A stretch of 30,167 bases of DNA from a virus. Lineage: Duplodnaviria > Caudoviricetes. Made by a program: the position numbers and the translations under genes. The notes under the pieces are model-generated. The model was not told where the DNA came from. It made no database searches and saw only the letters and a program-made list of their open reading frames with translations. The stretch covers positions 1 through 30,167 of the IMG/VR virus record IMGVR_UViG_3300007539_000123, one strand, 5' to 3'. The first letter of the stretch is position 1. Each line of letters opens with the position of its first letter. This document shows positions 18,401-26,881 of the stretch, in pieces.

Positions 18401-19941
18401 ATACCAGCAAGCCTTCTCGAAAGTCTGCTGTTTCTTTTTCTTTGTCTCTCAAATGGGCTAGAAGCCCTCTCTACGGTTGTATGGGAAGGGGGCTTATTAC
18501 CACCGAACAACACTCTCCGTCCTTCACCTCCACCTAAGACCGCATATTGCAAAGCGTCATGTATGTGAGAGAAGCGATTCTTAGAAGGTCTTTCTTCGTA
18601 TCTCTCGTTACCCATGTGGTACTGGCGTTTGTACTGATAGCCGCCCTCAAACCCAGAAATCAATACGGTACAATTAGGGCTTATAGTCATGGCAGGATAT
18701 CCGTCTGTCATACGATTAAGAACGCCCTCAACAGCCTCAACACGCATTACTGCGTCATTACTTGGAGCAGGATGTGCATTAATGCCAGCAGCTCTTAGTA
18801 TCATAAAAGGAGTATTTTCTGACGTCTGGGCCATTTGATTACCAGCAGGGTCGCCTACAAACTTGAAGTCGTGCTTGTCCCAAGAGTTTCTGGCGATTTC
18901 TCTTTTGAGGACTTCTGCAAATCGTCCTGCCCCCATGTCTTGTCCGATAACTTCATGGAATACTGTCCATCTTCCTCCAAAGTTTTGCTGGCAAAAGACT
19001 GCCGATGGCGTACGGCCGAAATCGATGCCGACAATAACTTCAACCCCATCAATCGGCTCAATTGGCGATTTGGCAACGTGAGTGTCCTTTCTGAAAGATG
19101 CATAGACAGACTTACCATCCATAAGAGCCTGATACTCGTTTAGAACGTAAACCTTTACCCATTGAGGCGTTTTGCCCAAAATAATCTTATCATAGTAGTC
19201 AGGTTGCATGTTTTTAGTGTTTTCAGCCTTGGGATTGTGTTCATACCCTATAAGAGCACCTGATTTGTCTTTTTTCTCTGTCATGGCACCAGCTTGCTTG
19301 TAAAAAACCCAATCTTCTGGCTTAACAAGCAATAATTTCTCTTCTGATGACATATATTCGGGGGTTGGGGCTTCACCAGACATAATTGCCCACCAATGAG
19401 TTTCATCTGGCGAGTTTGTGTCCATAATAACGCCAAACCATGACGGACCGCCATCTCTCATAGACGGGAAACGACCAACACGCATAGTACAGGCGTCAAC
19501 AATACTCTTTGGTATTTCTCTGGCTTCGTTAATCCACACGCCAGTTAGCTCTAGAGAAAGTAATTTCTTTACATCCTCTTGCTTATCTAAAGCCAAAAAG
19601 ATGACTTCTAGTTCCACAGTAGTTTTATCGCCCAATGCAAAATTAATATTATGAGTATATGGGGGCGACCAGACAAATCTGCCTATCTCATCATCAAACC
19701 AATCACGCCATGTCTTAATGGTTGTGGTTTTTAGTTGGGGATTGGTGTTACGAATGACTGCCCACCGTGTTCTGCGTACCCCAGCAGAATTAGGGGCTTG
19801 GTGGACAGCCTTTCGCATAATCTCCATGCAACAAGTCACGGATTTACCAGAGCCTACTGGCCCTCTTATTCCCCTAACAAAAGAGGAATCTTTTAAAAAT
19901 GCCTTGGCTATCGGACCAGGCGGTTCATAGTTTAGTTTCAT
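18397..19941 (-). CDS. terL: Terminase large subunit
   Basis: 514 aa. Walker A GPVGSGKS, Walker B VWINE, coupling motif DTN, nuclease motifs VGIDFG and HIHDALQY. Confidence 0.95.
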   Translation of the reverse strand: MKLNYEPPGPIAKAFLKDSSFVRGIRGPVGSGKSVTCCMEIMRKAVHQAPNSAGVRRTRWAVIRNTNPQLKTTTIKTWRDWFDDEIGRFVWSPPYTHNINFALGDKTTVELEVIFLALDKQEDVKKLLSLELTGVWINEAREIPKSIVDACTMRVGRFPSMRDGGPSWFGVIMDTNSPDETHWWAIMSGEAPTPEYMSSEEKLLLVKPEDWVFYKQAGAMTEKKDKSGALIGYEHNPKAENTKNMQPDYYDKIILGKTPQWVKVYVLNEYQALMDGKSVYASFRKDTHVAKSPIEPIDGVEVIVGIDFGRTPSAVFCQQNFGGRWTVFHEVIGQDMGAGRFAEVLKREIARNSWDKHDFKFVGDPAGNQMAQTSENTPFMILRAAGINAHPAPSNDAVMRVEAVEGVLNRMTDGYPAMTISPNCTVLISGFEGGYQYKRQYHMGNERYEERPSKNRFSHIHDALQYAVLGGGEGRRVLFGGNKPPSHTTVERASSPFERQRKRNSRLSRRLAGI

Positions 19942-20654
19942 TAAACAGAAGGCCTACCTATCAGCATGCGCCTCTTTACACCAGCCGCCCTCTCAGAAGC
20001 CAAAAGCCTTCTTGTGGCAGAAGTTGGTCCAGTTGTAGGGGCTGATGGAGTTGGACTTGGCTTTGAAGAAGCTGTAGCAGACTGAGGATTCTCGCCCCTG
20101 CTACCACCGTTGTCATCTTGAGCAAATGAATCAATAACATTTCCACCTTCTGACCTTTGACCAGCAGGAGTAACGCCGCCAACAACAAATCTGCCGCTTG
20201 ATGAATATCTAAACTGAGGCTGACCTCTTGCCGCTAAGTTTGCAAGCTGTTGCTTTCTGTTTATTGAGCCAACACCCATTAAAGCAGAACCGATTCCAAA
20301 CGGAAGGCCCTTGCCTAGTAATGCTATTGGGTCTTTCTTCTGACGATACTCAAGTTGCATACGAGCAACATCACGACCTCTTTCAGATGCCACGACATTT
20401 CCAAATTCGTCATAGGTGGATAGGTCCGACTTCTCAAAAAGCTTCTCTCTATATTCTTCCTTGGCTTTCTGACCCTTTCCTGTCGTAACACCACGACCGC
20501 TAGAGCTTCTAACAATACTTCCGGTAGAACTCTTAACGTAAGCATCATCACCTAACGCTTGCTCTTCTGCTTTCTGTCTGTTTTTCTTCGCTTGGTAATT
20601 CATAGGAGCCGCATCATAACCACCTGAACCACCGCCTCCGTTGCTACTTCCCAT
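19941..20654 (-). CDS. Hypothetical Gly/Ser-rich protein between terS and terL
   Basis: 237 aa, RBS CAGGAG, TAAATG-type coupling to terL. Low complexity with a basic C-terminus. Confidence 0.7.
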   Translation of the reverse strand: MGSSNGGGGSGGYDAAPMNYQAKKNRQKAEEQALGDDAYVKSSTGSIVRSSSGRGVTTGKGQKAKEEYREKLFEKSDLSTYDEFGNVVASERGRDVARMQLEYRQKKDPIALLGKGLPFGIGSALMGVGSINRKQQLANLAARGQPQFRYSSSGRFVVGGVTPAGQRSEGGNVIDSFAQDDNGGSRGENPQSATASSKPSPTPSAPTTGPTSATRRLLASERAAGVKRRMLIGRPSV

Positions 20655-20795
20655 AATTCACTCCTGTAAAAAAAAATATATTTCTAACGATTGGGTTATT
20701 TAAGTCTATCGTGTGTGTGGTTGACCTTCTTATGTATATAGTCCTGTATTTTAAGGTGCCTTACGATATAGGTCTATAGCACATAGGGGCCCCAT

Positions 20796-21230
20796 TCAGT
20801 CTACGTTGAAGTTTATCTGTACTGCGGTAGACGGCGCACGTCCTGAGTCCTGTCGAAATCCTGCTCTATCCATCAAGTCTCTGGCGGCTTCAAGCCTGAC
20901 GTATTGTGACTTGCTATCCAGCAGTTCCCTCATTGTCGCCATCGCCTGTGTAGCGTCCCACCCCAGAGTCATCATTGCCAACTGTTGTCTGTACTCGATA
21001 ACATGCTGTTTCTTTAGGGTATTATAAGCCCAAGCCTTGTTTCTACCCAACTGTTCAGCAGCTTGTGTTGGGTTGCAACCATTATGCAAGATAGCATGTA
21101 CTAATTCCTGCTGGTTCTCAGTTATCTTTTCGTTACTTGCTTTTACAACTGGTGCATGTTTCTCAATGTCTTCCATTGGAACCAAGCCCTGTTTGTATCG
21201 TTCTTGTTGTTGTTTATTTGCTGTTGTCAT
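20796..21230 (-). CDS. terS: Terminase small subunit
   Basis: 144 aa. N-terminal HTH (T..Q..LV...CNPTQAAEQLG...AYNTLKK..V..Y), VRLEAARDLMDRAG oligomerisation motif, C-terminal beta strand VQINFNVD. First gene of the late operon. Confidence 0.8.
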   Translation of the reverse strand: MTTANKQQQERYKQGLVPMEDIEKHAPVVKASNEKITENQQELVHAILHNGCNPTQAAEQLGRNKAWAYNTLKKQHVIEYRQQLAMMTLGWDATQAMATMRELLDSKSQYVRLEAARDLMDRAGFRQDSGRAPSTAVQINFNVD

Positions 21231-21244
21231 ATCCGAGAGCCAAT

Positions 21245-21870
21245 CATTGCGTCTACGGACGATTATACATATTACACCTTACTAGCTGTCAACCCCCTTT
21301 TTACGAAAAGTGGGCTTTGTCGTCCGTTAGATTGCTACGCAGTGTCTTGCCAGACGAGCTGACCTGTCCTTGTCAGGTCAATCACGCTACACTTCTGGGC
21401 CGTTTCCTCTCTCTGATAACGTAAAGCCATTCCACTTCGTTATTCATCTGAAGTAGATGAATTACCACTACGCTCCATGCCGTTACTCTTCGCATCAAGA
21501 GGGACGTTGCCAGAAGCGTTACATTGATAAGAAAGAGAAGCTTAAGCACAAAGAATCAGAAGAACGCCCATCGAGGGCTTTTCTTCCGACCCCTTTAGTC
21601 GGGGAACACACACACAAAATGGGCTGGCTTTTCCCGTGAAAAAGCATATGCACAATGAATTGCGATGCAAGCGAAACCGTCAAGCCCTCTTTTTCTTTGG
21701 CGGTCAATCCTTGTGTTAATCTATGTCGCCGTACAGTAGTGCGGCTCGTAGTCCTGACGATTTACCGCTCTTAACACGCCAAACAAAAAGACCTTCGGCA
21801 AGGGGCTGGACTGTGTTCTTTCATTGTGATGGGCGGTTCCCGTAAAGCGCACATTCTGCATGTGTGTTGG
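21245..21870 (+). ncRNA. Candidate large structured non-coding element (RNA or ssDNA), family unknown
   Basis: No credible ORF and more than a dozen nested complementary segments found by eye, e.g. 21688-21702 with 21777-21791, 21651-21659 with 21820-21828, 21253-21262 with 21320-21330. G-U pairs and a C-UUCG-G loop favour the + strand. Confidence 0.5.
21262..21292 (-). promoter_or_regulatory. Sigma70-type late-operon promoter candidate with 19-bp spacer
   Basis: Minus strand TTGACA (21292-21287), 19 nt, TATAAT (21267-21262); the -10 ends 31 nt upstream of the terS ATG. Confidence 0.65.
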
Positions 21871-21899
21871 TTACATAACATAACGTCAAGGAGAATGAC

Positions 21900-22073
21900 A
21901 TGATTAACAATTCACTATTACTTAAAGACTTCGATTCAACTGTAACTCTTGATGCAGACTTCGACAACGAAGTGACATACGAATTATGGGAGATACGCCA
22001 AGCATTAGACGCTGGCGACTACTCAAGAGCCAAGCAGTTGACAGACAACATTGGCTCTAACGATTATCAGTAA
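21900..22073 (+). CDS. Small acidic early protein (57 aa)
   Basis: Not in the ORF track. MINNSLLLKDFDSTVTLDADFDNEVTYELWEIRQALDAGDYSRAKQLTDNIGSNDYQ. RBS AAGGAG. Confidence 0.75.
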   Translation: MINNSLLLKDFDSTVTLDADFDNEVTYELWEIRQALDAGDYSRAKQLTDNIGSNDYQ

Positions 22074-22081
22074 GCCAAGTA

Positions 22082-22111
22082 GGGGTGGTTGATATTTCAG
22101 CTACCCCATTT
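22082..22111 (+). terminator. Intergenic hairpin (weak terminator or processing/stability site)
   Basis: GGGGTGGTTGA-TATT-TCAGCTACCCC: 11-bp stem with two G-U pairs, followed only by ATTT. Confidence 0.5.
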
Positions 22112-22128
22112 AACCAGAGGAGAATCTT

Positions 22129-22755
22129 ATGACTAAGAGATATACAAAACGTAACCAGTTACCACAACTTGACGTCAACGACCTAGACCGTATTCGCAAG
22201 GTAATGACCAAGGAGTCTATGCCCAACAAGTACAAAGACGACAAGTGTCAGGAACAGTGGGAGAAGGAGCTTGCTAGACGTATTGAGGCAGTAGTTGATA
22301 TGTTTGAGCTTGAGGAAGAGACTATTACCCAAGCCAAAGTAGCAGATGGTATAACTCGTATGTTTGAGAAGATTGCATACAATGACTTGCAGTATGGTAC
22401 ACAGCTTCGTAAGGAACGTGCAGATGCCATTCGTGCAGACGTAGGCATTGAGATTACCAAGAACGTCATTGACGACCTTGATACACAGCTTGAGAAGAAG
22501 CGTATATCATACTACTCATCGATGGCCGCTTACAGAGTTGCACGTTGGGTTGTACGCCCAGCCGTTATTGGTCGCAACAATCTCAATTGGGGTGACTACA
22601 AGCCAGCACATGAGATGGCAAGGGTTAGACGCATTGAGCGCCGTAACCGTCATCTTACAGCTGACACGCTGGTAGCATCAACTGCTCGTGACTTTCACGA
22701 GTATGCACGAGATACAGGTTTGATAGAAATGCCTGATGCGGCACAACAAGCTTAA
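22129..22755 (+). CDS. Hypothetical early protein
   Basis: 208 aa, RBS GAGGAG, helical and charged, followed by a terminator. No family recognised. Confidence 0.85.
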   Translation: MTKRYTKRNQLPQLDVNDLDRIRKVMTKESMPNKYKDDKCQEQWEKELARRIEAVVDMFELEEETITQAKVADGITRMFEKIAYNDLQYGTQLRKERADAIRADVGIEITKNVIDDLDTQLEKKRISYYSSMAAYRVARWVVRPAVIGRNNLNWGDYKPAHEMARVRRIERRNRHLTADTLVASTARDFHEYARDTGLIEMPDAAQQA

Positions 22756-22761
22756 CAGCAG

Positions 22762-22800
22762 GGAGGGTAGGGCTTCACGGCTCTACTCTCCACTTTTTTT
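22762..22800 (+). terminator. Rho-independent terminator
   Basis: GGAGGGTAGGGC-TTCACG-GCTCTACTCTCC stem followed by AC and 7 T. Confidence 0.85.
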
Positions 22801-22851
22801 GTGTCACCTAAAACTGCTGAGAAAACGCCTCAATCTAATGGGAGTAAGCCA

Positions 22852-23139
22852 ATGAGAAACATTATAAAGAAACATATTAATCGTGGTATTGTATCTGGTT
22901 ACAGCAACTTTGAACAATTCAGAATGTTCATGGGAGCTGTTGAGGTTATATACACAAACCCCTCTAACAAAAGATTAAGAGAAATAGAATCCTATTCTGA
23001 GCATTTAGTCACCTCCCCCAAGACTAATTTCAAAACTAAAAAGAAAGCCAATATTCTTGCTGGTGAGTGTCGTGACCAAATATATCTTAAAGATGCACTT
23101 GCTAGATTTTCAAGACTCAACAGGGAGGGTGTATTATGA
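22852..23139 (+). CDS. Hypothetical protein (95 aa)
   Basis: Start moved to the ATG at 22852 (MRNIIKK...) behind RBS GGGAG. The track's GTG start abuts the terminator. Confidence 0.7.
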   Translation: MRNIIKKHINRGIVSGYSNFEQFRMFMGAVEVIYTNPSNKRLREIESYSEHLVTSPKTNFKTKKKANILAGECRDQIYLKDALARFSRLNREGVL

Positions 23140-23426
23140 TGTTCTACATATTTGCTGGACTAGCTTCTGCTCTAGCAATACTGTTCTTATTAGCCAAATT
23201 TGATTTCAAAAAAGTTCTTTGGCTTGATATTCCAATTGATATAATGTCTACTATCCTACTCGTTGCTATGTTTGCTGGCACATTTGCTGGCATGATGGCG
23301 GCAGTAATAGGAGGGTGCCTCATTTCAATTGTCTTGTTTCTGTATAAACGTGTAGTTGGTTACAGAAAGCCAAGATGGAAAAAATATGGGTATGAGTGGG
23401 TTGATGTAACGCCTCGTTCCCAATAA
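23136..23426 (+). CDS. Small membrane protein
   Basis: 96 aa with 2-3 hydrophobic helices and a basic C-terminal tail. RBS GGAGGG, ATGA overlap. Confidence 0.75.
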   Translation: MMFYIFAGLASALAILFLLAKFDFKKVLWLDIPIDIMSTILLVAMFAGTFAGMMAAVIGGCLISIVLFLYKRVVGYRKPRWKKYGYEWVDVTPRSQ

Positions 23427-23530
23427 CAGAATTGACACTGGTACTAGCGTACGATGGTCGAAATCCAGTGACAGGGGGAATAGACGTGCTGCCCCCACCC
23501 TTCAACTTGTCAAACGTAAAGGAAAATGAC

Positions 23531-23953
23531 ATGAACTTCGCACAAATCACTATCTCTGGTAACATTGGTGCAGAACCCGAAGTCCGTGATGTAAACGGTA
23601 CTAAGGTTGCTGGCTTCTCTGTTGCGGTCAATGAAGGCTACACTAACAAGCAAGGCGAGAAGGTAGAGAAGACTCACTGGTATCGCTGTGAGGCTTGGGA
23701 TGGTAGCAATGGCAAAGGCCTCGTTACCAACGTGATTGAACCATATGCTAAACAAGGGACCACTGTCTTTGTTCAAGGCTTCCCAATCATTGAGGAGTAT
23801 GAGAAAGATGGTATCAAACAACGTGCCTTCAAGGTAAAACTTGCTGGTGCTGGCTCAACATTCCGTCTAGCCTCAAAGTCTGAGGGTGGCGGTAAATCAT
23901 CTGCTCCTGATGGCAATACAAAGCCTAATGGTGATGACGATATTCCGTTCTAG
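23531..23953 (+). CDS. ssb: Single-stranded DNA-binding protein
   Basis: Start at ATG 23531 (RBS AAAGGA). OB-fold motifs ISGNIGAEPEVR, FSVAVN, THWYRCEAW, G..V.V.G and acidic tail DDDIPF. Confidence 0.95.
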   Translation: MNFAQITISGNIGAEPEVRDVNGTKVAGFSVAVNEGYTNKQGEKVEKTHWYRCEAWDGSNGKGLVTNVIEPYAKQGTTVFVQGFPIIEEYEKDGIKQRAFKVKLAGAGSTFRLASKSEGGGKSSAPDGNTKPNGDDDIPF

Positions 23954-23978
23954 GAGCCTCCAACCTAGAATAGAATGA

Positions 23979-24014
23979 GAGGGTAGGGGTTCCTCATGGC
24001 CTCTACCCTTTTTT
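23979..24014 (+). terminator. Rho-independent terminator after ssb
   Basis: GAGGGTAGGGGT-loop-GCCTCTACCCTT stem running into a 6-T tract. Confidence 0.8.
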
Positions 24015-24173
24015 ATTGCAAACACACAATAATAGTTTTGAAGAGGGTTGGATGCCGAGTGTGTCGGTAGCAAAGCCAATCATAGGGATGAAAGGAAGGT
24101 GGCAGTGTACGCCTCGAGCAACGTACATTTGCGGTATTCATAAACTATTCACAAATTCACAGGGAGTTCACAG

Positions 24174-24626
24174 ATGAATTACATGAACAAATACTCATCA
24201 ATAGAAACATTGCTAGACCCCTTTAATGAAACAATATCTGTTGTTCCTGCAGAAACAGGAGCAGGCAGATGGCAGGGGTATAGAGAAATTATTGAAGCCA
24301 GTATGTTTGGATTTGTACGCCTCTATTCAAATGGTGACGGTGTATATATCGATGACGAAGGCTTGTATTCAGAAAAGCAATATTTCTGGATGCACCGTAA
24401 TTACCCACAACCCCTTGTAAACAAAGCGTGTTTTGTCGGCATGGACGAAGAAGGTGATACTATACCTCCAAGAACAAGCTTGACTCAGTTTGAAAAAGAC
24501 GTTGTGTTTATAGGTTCACGCTATCAATTGGTCCTCAATCTACAGGTTCACTCAGATAAAGTAATCAAAGACAAAGAAGGATACGATGTAGATTACAGAC
24601 CTATATTTTTTAATATGGAGGAGTAA
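24174..24626 (+). CDS. DUF3846-like hypothetical protein
   Basis: 150 aa. Motifs LLDPF...I, GD.VYIDDEGL and P.V....FVG.DEEGD recalled as DUF3846-type. Confidence 0.65.
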   Translation: MNYMNKYSSIETLLDPFNETISVVPAETGAGRWQGYREIIEASMFGFVRLYSNGDGVYIDDEGLYSEKQYFWMHRNYPQPLVNKACFVGMDEEGDTIPPRTSLTQFEKDVVFIGSRYQLVLNLQVHSDKVIKDKEGYDVDYRPIFFNMEE

Positions 24627-25074: not shown

Positions 25075-25302
25075 ATGTCTTACATCAGAAGCAGTATATC
25101 TATGGACTGCGATAAAGTCATATCACACGGAACAGTAGATGATAATGACCTATTCATAGAGTTTCAGTACAAGGGAGCAGTTATTCATAGGGTTCATATA
25201 TTCCCTGATGATGATCGAAGTTTTGTTTCATCAGTGATTAACTTACAAAAAGAAAATGCAATAGTGGAGTCACAAAATGCAGAAAGAAATACTGTTAAGT
25301 GA
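25075..25302 (+). CDS. Hypothetical protein
   Basis: 75 aa, RBS GGAGGA, abuts the upstream stop. Confidence 0.65.
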   Translation: MSYIRSSISMDCDKVISHGTVDDNDLFIEFQYKGAVIHRVHIFPDDDRSFVSSVINLQKENAIVESQNAERNTVK

Positions 25303-26881
25303 GCTTAAACACTCACCCAACAATGTACGGCAAGTAAAGTCTAGCGATGCTAGTATCGACCAGCTTGCCGCCTCAATCAAATCAAAGGGATTGCTTCACA
25401 ACCTTGTTGTTGTCAAAAACGGCAAAGGTTACAATGTTATTGATGGCAACCGCAGATTGGAAGCTCTCAACAAGCTTTACAATTCAAAATCTGTACCAGT
25501 CAATTGCATTGTCATTGAATCAGAAGACAATGAAGTTGGTCTTCATGCTAACATGATGCGTGAAAACATGCACCCACTTGACGAATGCGATGCAATCAAC
25601 GCTCTTGTCATGGATGGGAGTGAGGATTACGACTCAGTTGCCGCTAGATTCGGTCAAACCCAAAAATGGGTACATCAGCGTGTAATGCTCTCTGAGCTGT
25701 CTGACAAAGCCAAAGGTCTGTTTAGAGCTAATGAGTTTGGGATAGGCGTAGCGCAAGCTTTAACGCTTGGCAATCATGCAAAACAAGACGAATACTTTGA
25801 TACCTTTGACCATTACAATACAGATAGCATACGCAGGTTTATGACTGAGAAAAAACTGCCTCTGTCTGCCGCATTGTTTGAGATTACAGACGATGCAAGA
25901 AAGGAACTAGCCATTGAGTCTGATTTGTTTAGCGATAACGAATACATCACTGACTTACAGGCATTTGATGTATGGCAAAAGACTTTCATACACAACAGAA
26001 TAGATGAGCTAAAGAAGAAATACTTTGATGTAATCTATTTGGTAGATGAGTATTCATATGCTTCTCACGAAACAAGAGGCTTAACACGCATATACAGTTT
26101 CGATGAGAAAGAACGTGATACCGCTGACGTTGTTTGTGTTCTTGTTTACAACTCATATCAACACGCATTGACAGAAGAATACATGCTTCCATCGGAAACA
26201 GTCGAAGCTGAGAAAGCTGAAGACTCAGAAGAAGAGGAAGTAGAAGTCAACCCAATGGTAATGTCTAAGCCTCAAGAACATCTGCTCAAATCATACCATG
26301 CTGAGTATGTCAGAAATGATATATGGAAATGGGTTCATGCAGAAGATACAACAAGGTTCTTCAAGGCTCTTTTATGCCACAGGTCACTAGGTTACTCATA
26401 CTCTCTTACCAATCGTGTAGGTCACTTGTATGCAGAAAATCAAAATGTTTTTTCAAAGGACGATATTCCAGATGATTATATTACTCCACAATATGAAGCT
26501 CTTATTGATAAACATATTGATAGTGCTTCATCTGCTTTTGAAGACAACGGCACTACTCCCCTTAGCTATTGCCTCAGTCTCAACGATGAAGAACTCCATA
26601 AGTTCTTTATTGCATGTTGTATTACGGCTCTTTCGCCTAGTGACCTCCGTTCTAAAACCATCATGGACGTATCGCCGTTCAAGACTCCTGATAACGGATG
26701 GTTCAAACCAGACGCAAAATGGGTCAACAAATGGAAGGCGGAGCAACTAAGCCAGATGGAGGATTATTTGTTTGGCAAAGTGTCATCAGCTTCACGTTCA
26801 CAACGTGTCAATGCAATTGTCAAGGAACTAAAAGACAATCCTGTATTCGACCCATTTGGTTCTTGGCCTCAATACAAATAA
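25277..26881 (+). CDS. Long ParB/RepB/Spo0J-family protein
   Basis: 534 aa. NVR...L..SI...GLLHNLVV, GxRR box (IDGNRRLEAL), N..RENMHPLDE, HTH (VAARFGQTQKWVHQR), and a long C-terminal extension ending WFKPDA.W.N. Confidence 0.9.
   Translation: MQKEILLSELKHSPNNVRQVKSSDASIDQLAASIKSKGLLHNLVVVKNGKGYNVIDGNRRLEALNKLYNSKSVPVNCIVIESEDNEVGLHANMMRENMHPLDECDAINALVMDGSEDYDSVAARFGQTQKWVHQRVMLSELSDKAKGLFRANEFGIGVAQALTLGNHAKQDEYFDTFDHYNTDSIRRFMTEKKLPLSAALFEITDDARKELAIESDLFSDNEYITDLQAFDVWQKTFIHNRIDELKKKYFDVIYLVDEYSYASHETRGLTRIYSFDEKERDTADVVCVLVYNSYQHALTEEYMLPSETVEAEKAEDSEEEEVEVNPMVMSKPQEHLLKSYHAEYVRNDIWKWVHAEDTTRFFKALLCHRSLGYSYSLTNRVGHLYAENQNVFSKDDIPDDYITPQYEALIDKHIDSASSAFEDNGTTPLSYCLSLNDEELHKFFIACCITALSPSDLRSKTIMDVSPFKTPDNGWFKPDAKWVNKWKAEQLSQMEDYLFGKVSSASRSQRVNAIVKELKDNPVFDPFGSWPQYK

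Follow-up and report, generated by a model that had tools for sequence, protein, structure and literature searches.

Gene content and organisation of the locus

The window, by which we mean the whole stretch of 30,167 nucleotides analysed here (IMG/VR record IMGVR_UViG_3300007539_000123), covers most of a podophage genome, with a leftward late operon headed by the terminase small subunit gene (terS) and a rightward early region. The genes for TerS, TerL, the portal, the capsid and the tail all reside in the window, and the early region encodes SSB, a long ParB-like protein, a YqaJ exonuclease and Sak. Among cultured phages, Pelagibacter phage EXVC031P Hodr is the nearest (TerL 58%, capsid 48%). 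A 264-nt element occupies the right part of the 670-nt gap separating the divergent operons (Table 1). It ends 21 nt before the first ribosome-binding site (RBS), in line with the original prediction, made from the sequence alone, of a structure ending about 20 nt before the RBS of a 57-residue ORF.

Table 1. Features of the terS/early-region gap and its flanks (positions in the window)
Feature	Position	Strand	Basis or remark
Terminase small subunit (terS)	20796..21230	-	ORF family scan
terS/late operon promoter, TTGACA-19-TATAAT, ordinary duplex type	21262..21292	-	promoter scans; internal positive control
Hairpin-rich left part of the swappable intergenic cassette	21293..21604	-	folds better on minus
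Whole fold-back element	21605..21868	-	folding, shuffles, window ranking; minus is the early-gene template strand
Closing stem, non-template arm, nearly invariant GT repeat (CA repeat on +)	21605..21621	-	invariant columns, alignments A1 and A2
Small hairpin beside the -10, conserved in the family	21627..21645	-	p about 0.5
Candidate non-template -10, TATGCT (alternative CATATG at 21650-45)	21643..21648	-	sequence; position inferred
Non-template -35 hexamer, TTGACG	21678..21683	-	pair table, folding
A/T-tract helix just apical of the -35	21688..21702	-	pairs with 21777-91; UP-element-like by position
Exchangeable apical module with conserved GCCGTAC/GTGCGGC hairpin	21721..21768		G-T on +, C-A on minus
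CCGAAGG DNA mini-hairpin (UUCG loop of the original prediction)	21792..21798	-	loop census
-35 helix, template side, TGGACT on + (TTGAC[T/A/G] in most relatives)	21807..21812	+	pair table
17-nt spacer, template arm	21813..21829	+	pairs with 21651-59 and 21673-77 across the three-way junction
Closing stem, template arm (inferred downstream duplex)	21852..21868	-	pairs with 21605-21621
RBS of the first early ORF	21889..21894	+	sequence
First early ORF, 57 aa, without family match	21900..22073	+	ORF list, family scan
Second early ORF, 208 aa, clade-conserved, without family match	22129..22755	+	followed by terminator 22762-22791
SSB, likely start 23531	23432..23953	+	family scan
Long ParB-like protein	25277..26881	+	N-terminal 230 aa 30% identical to F YfjB/HerB

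Although the hexamers of the terS promoter are perfect or nearly so, its spacer measures 19 nt in 40 of 43 relatives; the promoter may require an activator or a twist of the DNA, or may mark the packaging site. In the window, as in close relatives, an inverted repeat (21255-61/21321-27) brackets this promoter. Farther to the right, a short strong hairpin (22081-22108) stands between the first two early ORFs, at the same position in relatives. The motif AACGT(C/A)AAGGA precedes both the first early ORF (21882-21903) and ssb (23513-23534), and recurs ahead of the first RBS in many relatives. A weaker second long hairpin (24014-24165; -17/-15 kcal/mol) follows the terminator near 23980, upstream of a 150-aa ORF. 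In the interval between terS and terL, a 237-aa ORF (19941-20654) is glycine-rich and mostly disordered, with only its ends conserved; no functional lead emerged (model pLDDT 55) for it, for the 208-aa ORF or for a 1,008-aa virion protein.

Matches to the 534-residue ParB come from at least 5,000 plasmids, of which 4,035 are conjugative, and the protein is present in 5/5 near-complete relatives. The YfjB/HerB gene is induced at plasmid entry (bioRxiv 10.64898/2026.07.07.736705, excerpt) and stands in F under Frpo2 together with ssb (PMC9849209, excerpt). In Hodr, the early region downstream of the hairpin described below carries a full ArdC with ArdcN and zincin domains (L081, 7501-8385), and ArdC relatives occur in 21 viral loci. 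ArdC binds single-stranded DNA (ssDNA), and it is a typical establishment gene of plasmids. The latter point is made in an excerpt of PMC8708921. Both ssb and parB lie beyond terminator-like hairpins (22762 and about 23980), so that read-through or other starts would be needed for their transcription. Among the ORFs scanned we found no primase, helicase or polymerase families and no relaxase or oriT; neither DnaB helicase nor Toprim primase was found in 5/5 near-complete relatives, and no polymerase family in the window, whose largest ORF, of 1,389 aa, is lysozyme-bearing, or in the scanned relatives.

Structure and strand of the fold-back element

The arms of the original prediction lie at the coordinates it had listed, as seen in the sequence and in its inverted repeats. 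They form a nested trunk (21605-21621/21852-21868, 21651-59/21820-28, 21679-87/21803-11, 21688-702/21777-91 and 21714-19/21771-76) with pair probabilities mostly of 0.8-1.0 for the minus strand as DNA. Compared with shuffled sequences, the minus strand gave a z-score of -3.18 as RNA (1/200 shuffles as good) and -4.53 as DNA (0/200), and the plus strand gave -3.64 as DNA and -1.05 as RNA (34/200 shuffles as good). The anticipated excess of folding energy over shuffles is therefore present for the minus strand in either polymer and for the plus strand as DNA, and is missing for a plus-strand RNA. The element ranked first among 223 windows of 270 nt on both strands; a scan with 200-nt windows missed it because the window was too short. 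The outer closing stem reached a probability of 1.0 on minus RNA and 0.97 on minus DNA, and of 0.07 on plus RNA and 0.4 on plus DNA.

Two details of the original prediction required revision. G-U pairs had been assigned to the plus strand exclusively, which is correct for the apical GCCGTAC/GTGCGGC hairpin and not for the element overall, where confident G-T pairs number 4-5 on minus and 2-4 on plus. The proposed UUCG tetraloop has a stem of only 1 bp on the plus strand, and the same bases form a C-GAA-G triloop with three pairs on the minus strand. In 42 CTTCG contexts of the family, a plus-strand UUCG stem of at least three Watson-Crick pairs occurs in none and a triloop stem of that length in six.

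No Rfam covariance model matched the window at the gathering score, and a looser threshold applied to 21200-21950 returned only two chance matches (E 1.2 and 2.1). The blastn searches of the region against phages and plasmids likewise gave chance matches or none. Contigs from other runs cover the element with 0-1 differences, ruling out an assembly artefact, and neither ends nor a dip in DNA depth over the element were seen in them. The single RNA run (X20) gives no coverage of the element.

Conservation, covariation and exchange of the cassette

We compared 80 terS loci, 13 of which had no delimitable element; the other 67 elements, including that of the window, were reduced to 44 non-redundant ones. 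Subsets of 43 (the mis-delimited L029 dropped), 34 (nine without a paired -35 anchor removed) and 33 (without the misregistered L037) served for particular counts. The fold is kept at the same place in the 43 non-redundant elements, even though blast similarity between them is slight. They share a layout in which a CA repeat is followed by a variable interior, TTGAC stands 60-80 nt ahead of the RBS, and the arm adjoining the RBS is of the GT type; the median distance between the stem start and the RBS is 17 nt (range 1-23, n=43). The minus strand has the lower energy in 43/44 elements as DNA and in 40/44 as RNA. When folds were made without wobble pairs and single mismatches were read on the minus strand, G-T outnumbered A-C by 23 to 4 and by 27 to 4; in the closing-stem helix, too, one-sided changes yield G-T wobbles on minus. 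The left part of the cassette (21293..21604) behaves in the same manner, with a lower minus energy in 38/43 and 15 G-T against 5 A-C.

Covariation was assessed in 13 elements chosen for having the outer arms of the window. Two-sided changes appear at 29 of 51 consensus pairs, and 95% of the cells pair, in a structure derived from the same alignment; some of the two-sided changes may be register shifts of the CA repeat. None of 500 shuffles reached the observed level, and slid controls stayed at or below 51%. Covariation in these syntenic relatives, together with the absence of an Rfam match, supports the original view of a selected fold belonging to no known family. The elements are related and mosaic, and the counts are therefore not independent of each other. 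An alignment of 15 mixed elements (A1) was misaligned and gave no consensus past the closing stem. In a test of cognate arm pairing, the whole basal arm placed its partner among the top three in 30/33, and short segments were weak (13-14/33). We conclude that the element is real and under selection, on the strand opposite to that originally proposed.

A motif scan retrieved 55 viral loci, 53 of which adjoin terS, the remaining two being without that flank; in 13 motif loci terS is only 34-37% identical. Four bacterial genomes matched as well, none with terS. There is one CA-repeat element per genome. One relative (L002) has a 99% identical terS and a different cassette, indicating exchange of the cassette as a unit, and two cassette alleles coexist within a single run (X4), between 21329 and 21877. 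The inner modules of the cassette are mosaic, with at least four apical types, one of them with a doubled GGAAGGAACCG motif. On the non-template arm, the GT repeat 21605-21613 is invariant and its partner varies by wobble; the repeat is possibly a protein-binding site.

Putative promoter elements brought together by the predicted fold

When the minus strand is folded, its 5' arm continues into the early gene and would be the template there, and its 3' arm would take the place of the non-template strand. The two arms pair as a -35 hexamer in 34 of 43 elements, the version in the window being degenerate. Pairing varies at -38, -36 and -30, with three or four combinations, and is fixed from -35 to -31. 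At -33, the template C is present in 32/33 elements and the non-template T in 21. Sigma70 contacts template-strand bases at positions -33 and -31, and for positions -11 to -7 it reads the non-template strand alone (PMC2613000, excerpt). The template pattern at -33 and the candidate one-armed -10 described below match these strand contacts as far as the excerpt gives them. The region from -55 to -41 has an AT fraction of 0.64 versus an element mean of 0.54, and is higher than the mean in 26/33; the A/T-tract helix located there may act like an UP element.

At the three-way junction, a side hairpin (21660-70) increases the linear distance along the opposite arm to about 29 nt; counted along the template, TATGCT of the window lies 17 nt from the -35. 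The template bases opposite this candidate (21830-35, TGGGCG on +) are non-complementary from -11 on, with -12 pairable. Measured through the fold, the spacing does not settle on one value (16 to about 22 nt), and two -10 candidates stand in tandem. Across the family, 16-18 nt after the plus-strand -35 on linear DNA, TA occurs in 0/34 and A...T in 0/34; at the same spacing through the fold, on the opposite arm, TA occurs in 12/34 and A...T in 19/34. Where the search pattern left the hexamer just 3' of the small hairpin unspecified, this hexamer carries A at position 2 in 25/25 and T at position 6 in 24/25 with a variable middle. Fourteen further elements have (G/T)A(T/C)AAT, retrieved by a pattern that demanded it, and these post-hairpin patterns were chosen after the alignment had been seen. 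The hexamer is a perfect TATAAT in three distant relatives that we folded, and no post-hairpin -10 is present in the window and three relatives (L007, L039 and L076). Many alphaproteobacterial promoters are without the -7 T (PMC8407463, excerpt).

The same promoter scan found the terS promoter in 43/43 (19-nt spacer in 40) and a plus-strand promoter in 10/43, at scattered places. A strict genome-wide scan detected no promoter heading the early region, either in the window or in five relatives, and a loose plus-strand match lies at 22038. For the window clade, scoring without an anchor does not favour the non-template arm (20 vs 15, 8 ties, p 0.5), and an automated test for TAnnnT opposite the template bulge gave 7/23 vs a background of 17%. 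From the arrangement of these motifs, the duplex -35 and a candidate -10 carried solely by the non-template arm are predicted to constitute a rebuilt sigma70 promoter aimed at the early RBS.

A sister clade with a cultured member

Hodr carries a hairpin of 165 nt at the same place, and its non-template arm includes TTGTTA-16-TATATT. The Hodr terS matches about 1,400 IMG/VR stretches; 80 of these yielded 49 non-redundant gaps, which were analysed together with that of Hodr. A fold with z < -3 adjoins the early RBS in 44/50, the template strand has the lower energy in 36/45, and the wobble census again favours G-T over A-C (22 vs 4 and 21 vs 4). In this clade the non-template arm has the better promoter score, by 25 to 6 (p 0.0009, unanchored). 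In some of the simple hairpins the non-template arm would double as a duplex promoter facing terS. Comparable hairpins were absent from the folded gaps of HTVC203P and Baldr. In the records OQ414635 and OQ414636, the locus tags of Hodr and Baldr are swapped relative to the record titles.

Loop types point to folded DNA

C-GNA-G mini-hairpins are more frequent on the minus (template) strand than on the plus strand, 20 vs 8 in the window clade and 33 vs 4 in the Hodr clade, a bias absent from the coding flanks (3 vs 12, 5 vs 11, 12 vs 15 and 10 vs 11). GCGAAGC is found 12 vs 0 times on the template strand of the Hodr clade. GCGNAGC and GCGNNAGC are unusually stable and nuclease-resistant in DNA, the measured RNA form being far less stable, and the CCGAAGG 7-mer of the window is also found in the plasmid ssiA signal (PMC13037366, excerpt). 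The GNA signal is visible only for C-G-closed 2-bp mini-hairpins: a first loop census, with stems of at least four Watson-Crick pairs, counted GNA triloops 0 on minus vs 4 on plus, and with stems of at least three pairs the count was 8 vs 11, without minus bias. GNRA loops number 10 on minus vs 1 on plus in the window clade and 2 vs 5 in the Hodr clade; the former ratio fits either polymer, as GCGNAGC and GCGNNAGC are stable DNA motifs. One observation runs counter to this: the apical hairpin keeps G-T on plus and C-A on minus in 10/10 rows, and might be bound by a protein at its C-A mismatch.

A probable single-stranded DNA promoter for the early genes

The element is probably an ssDNA promoter for the early genes, Frpo-like and non-homologous to Frpo, a reading that draws on sequence comparison throughout. 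The minus strand, once unpaired, would fold in such a way as to restore a sigma70 promoter from its two arms, and from it host RNA polymerase would transcribe the early genes on the folded strand; the transcript may also prime plus-strand synthesis. Polymerase would bind, start near 21840-21860 and be shut off once the duplex is restored. Out of the three functions offered originally, the ssDNA promoter or priming signal of the Frpo/ssi type is favoured; a plus-strand ncRNA and a put-like antiterminator are unsupported, because the functional strand is minus and no conserved plus-strand promoter lies upstream.

Rather improbable, in our estimate, is a signal for priming only (sso/ssi type), at which host RNA polymerase or a primosome would start the complementary strand on a displaced minus strand, the early genes being expressed otherwise. 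The absence of DnaB and Toprim from the five near-complete relatives and of primase, helicase and polymerase families among the scanned ORFs would suit such an origin, as would the single CA-repeat element per genome, the GNA mini-hairpins known at ssDNA origins (PMC13037366, excerpt) and the priming by Frpo-type promoters (bioRxiv 10.64898/2026.01.09.698686, excerpt). However, a pure origin fails to explain the distance of 1-23 nt between the stem and the first RBS in 43/43 and the absence of an alternative conserved early promoter.

We consider it quite improbable that the element is a DNA-end, packaging or recombination signal, with incidental hexamers and a nuclease-resistant minus tail that halts resection or is read by terminase or Sak. 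Neither TTGAC on both arms nor the strand-specific -33 pattern nor the one-armed TAnnnT is predicted by such a signal, although it would account for the position 375 nt upstream of terS, the minus-strand structure of the left cassette part and the invariant GT repeat. Contig ends do cluster within 200 nt upstream of terS (6 vs 0; 12 vs 3), but not at one base, and two near-complete contigs are without the variable cassette. A physical terminus near terS was rejected as the origin of these ends, which assembly breaks at the variable cassette explain better. Two contigs (L038 and L045) start at the same position, which lies in the spacer of the terS promoter and 50 nt ahead of the match to terS; this shared start may faintly indicate a physical end, or reflect a break in assembly.

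Slightly less probable still is a minus-strand RNA that mimics an open promoter and titrates host polymerase as a 6S-like decoy. The minus strand folds well as RNA and has the GNRA excess of 10 vs 1 in the window clade, but this bias is absent from the Hodr clade (2 vs 5). Such an RNA would lack a strict minus-strand promoter between 21292 and 24890 in the window and a minus-strand terminator in 20600-24500, and the GNA triloops and GCGAAGC are DNA-type, with GNNA loops suiting DNA as well (PMC13037366, excerpt).

A plus-strand RNA leader or put-like antiterminator is very improbable. The G-U pairs that the apical hairpin keeps on plus, the 5 vs 0 C-UUCG-G (C-TTCG-G) contexts on that strand, the downstream terminators and the plus strands of relatives, which beat shuffles as RNA (mean z -5.2, 10 shuffles each), would speak for it; against it stand the window z of -1.05, the outer stem probability of 0.07, the wobble bias toward minus and the absence of a conserved upstream plus-strand promoter. 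Equally improbable is an N4-like cruciform promoter extruded by supercoiling from duplex DNA without any free single strand: both strands are able to fold as DNA and the nearby divergent promoter could add negative supercoils, but the duplex at -372 kcal/mol compares with folds of -50 and -53 kcal/mol, so that supercoiling alone, releasing about 180 kcal/mol for a 35-kb circle at a superhelical density of -0.06 by the superhelical free-energy constant, looks insufficient for a cost near 270 kcal/mol.

Source of the single strand and implications

An ssDNA promoter would require the minus strand to be exposed, and to our knowledge tailed dsDNA phages have no established single-stranded phase. 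The foremost candidate source, itself somewhat less likely than not, is 5'-to-3' resection of the terS-side end after injection, by host enzymes of the AddAB/RecJ type first and by the phage YqaJ exonuclease later, which would expose exactly the minus strand. If, as in pac-type phages, packaging starts near terS and proceeds toward the late genes, and the end packaged last is the first to enter, the terS-side end would lead on entry and resection would uncover minus. The entry rule is disputed for lambda (PMC10287942, excerpt). Resection from this side would also explain the minus bias of the left cassette part. A strand displaced during rolling-circle or recombination-dependent replication is a more tentative source; rather unlikely is that packaging or entry leaves a gap or removes a strand.

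These elements can be joined into a doubtful but specific scenario. A widespread group of tailed marine podophages would pass on entry through a programmed stage with a single-stranded leading end, a start resembling that of a conjugative plasmid, in which the ssDNA promoter fires a plasmid-type establishment operon of SSB, HerB-like ParB and ArdC; conversion to duplex would switch it off, and host nuclease attack or strand loss would itself trigger the lytic programme. If true, the group would include the window clade and the Hodr-like clade with about 1,400 IMG/VR stretches, and the late promoter would remain after duplex conversion.

Host-polymerase ssDNA promoters have so far been described for elements that travel as single strands, chiefly conjugative plasmids. 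Among the matches listed in open-licence PubMed Central and bioRxiv, none described such a promoter in a tailed phage. Most likely the element belongs to a new ssDNA promoter family, residing in a type of genome where none was expected. An ssDNA promoter heading the early operon would imply an unrecognised single-stranded stage of infection in tailed dsDNA phages, and would be a timer coupling gene expression to the state of the DNA. The family is large and diverse in sequence and shares establishment genes with plasmids. Its natural variants could reveal which bases sigma70 requires on which strand, and the cultured member Hodr makes a direct test possible.

Comparison with known systems

HK022 put RNA and 6S RNA are structured, act on host RNA polymerase and need their own promoter. 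The phage element differs from both in having no Rfam match and loops of the DNA type, and it lies on the wrong strand for put. M13 and rolling-circle plasmids (sso) have folded single-strand origins. Such origins, and likewise the G4 origin and plasmid ssiA, differ from the phage element in that their replicons necessarily pass through an ssDNA stage and in that no RBS is supplied from their position. The G4 origin and plasmid ssiA resemble the element as folded ssDNA with mini-hairpins, where priming by a host enzyme is possible (PMC13037366, excerpt).

Coliphage N4 is likewise a tailed podophage with dsDNA, and its early genes are transcribed by way of GNA-looped hairpins on the template strand (PMC13037366, excerpt). 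N4, however, combines a 5-bp hairpin with its own virion polymerase of 3,500 aa, as far as that excerpt goes, whereas we observe a 264-nt fold, host sigma70 hexamers and no polymerase gene in the window or the scanned relatives.

The closest functional counterparts are the class 1 ssDNA promoters, Frpo1 and Frpo2 of F and ssi1-3 of ColIb-P9/pESBL, next to which class 2-3 have also been described (PMC9849209, PMC11541004, PMC12672017, excerpts). The phage element differs from them in residing in a tailed dsDNA phage without oriT or relaxase among the scanned ORFs, in being single-copy, and in its modular and swappable interior, its GT-repeat closing stem and its GNA mini-hairpins, which in the F Frpo regions count 0 on the template strand vs 2. 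Homology is lacking as well: blastn against both F Frpo regions gave a best E of 0.18 over 25-35 nt, and none of 72,556 plasmids matched the element. A GCCCCTTGC..CGAAGG motif in the F Frpo regions (L098, 6380-6650) resembles that next to the phage -35 but is oriented the other way with respect to the downstream gene, and at E 0.18 may be chance. As with the phage element, the template strand of the F Frpo regions has the lower folding energy (-135 vs -126 kcal/mol). Within what the excerpts cover, the phage element shares with Frpo/ssi a long template-strand fold-back ending beside an RBS with no duplex promoter, a fold that would rebuild the -35, an A/T-rich helix and, as a candidate in the phage, the -10, and a position upstream of ssb, ParB-like yfjB/herB or ard genes.
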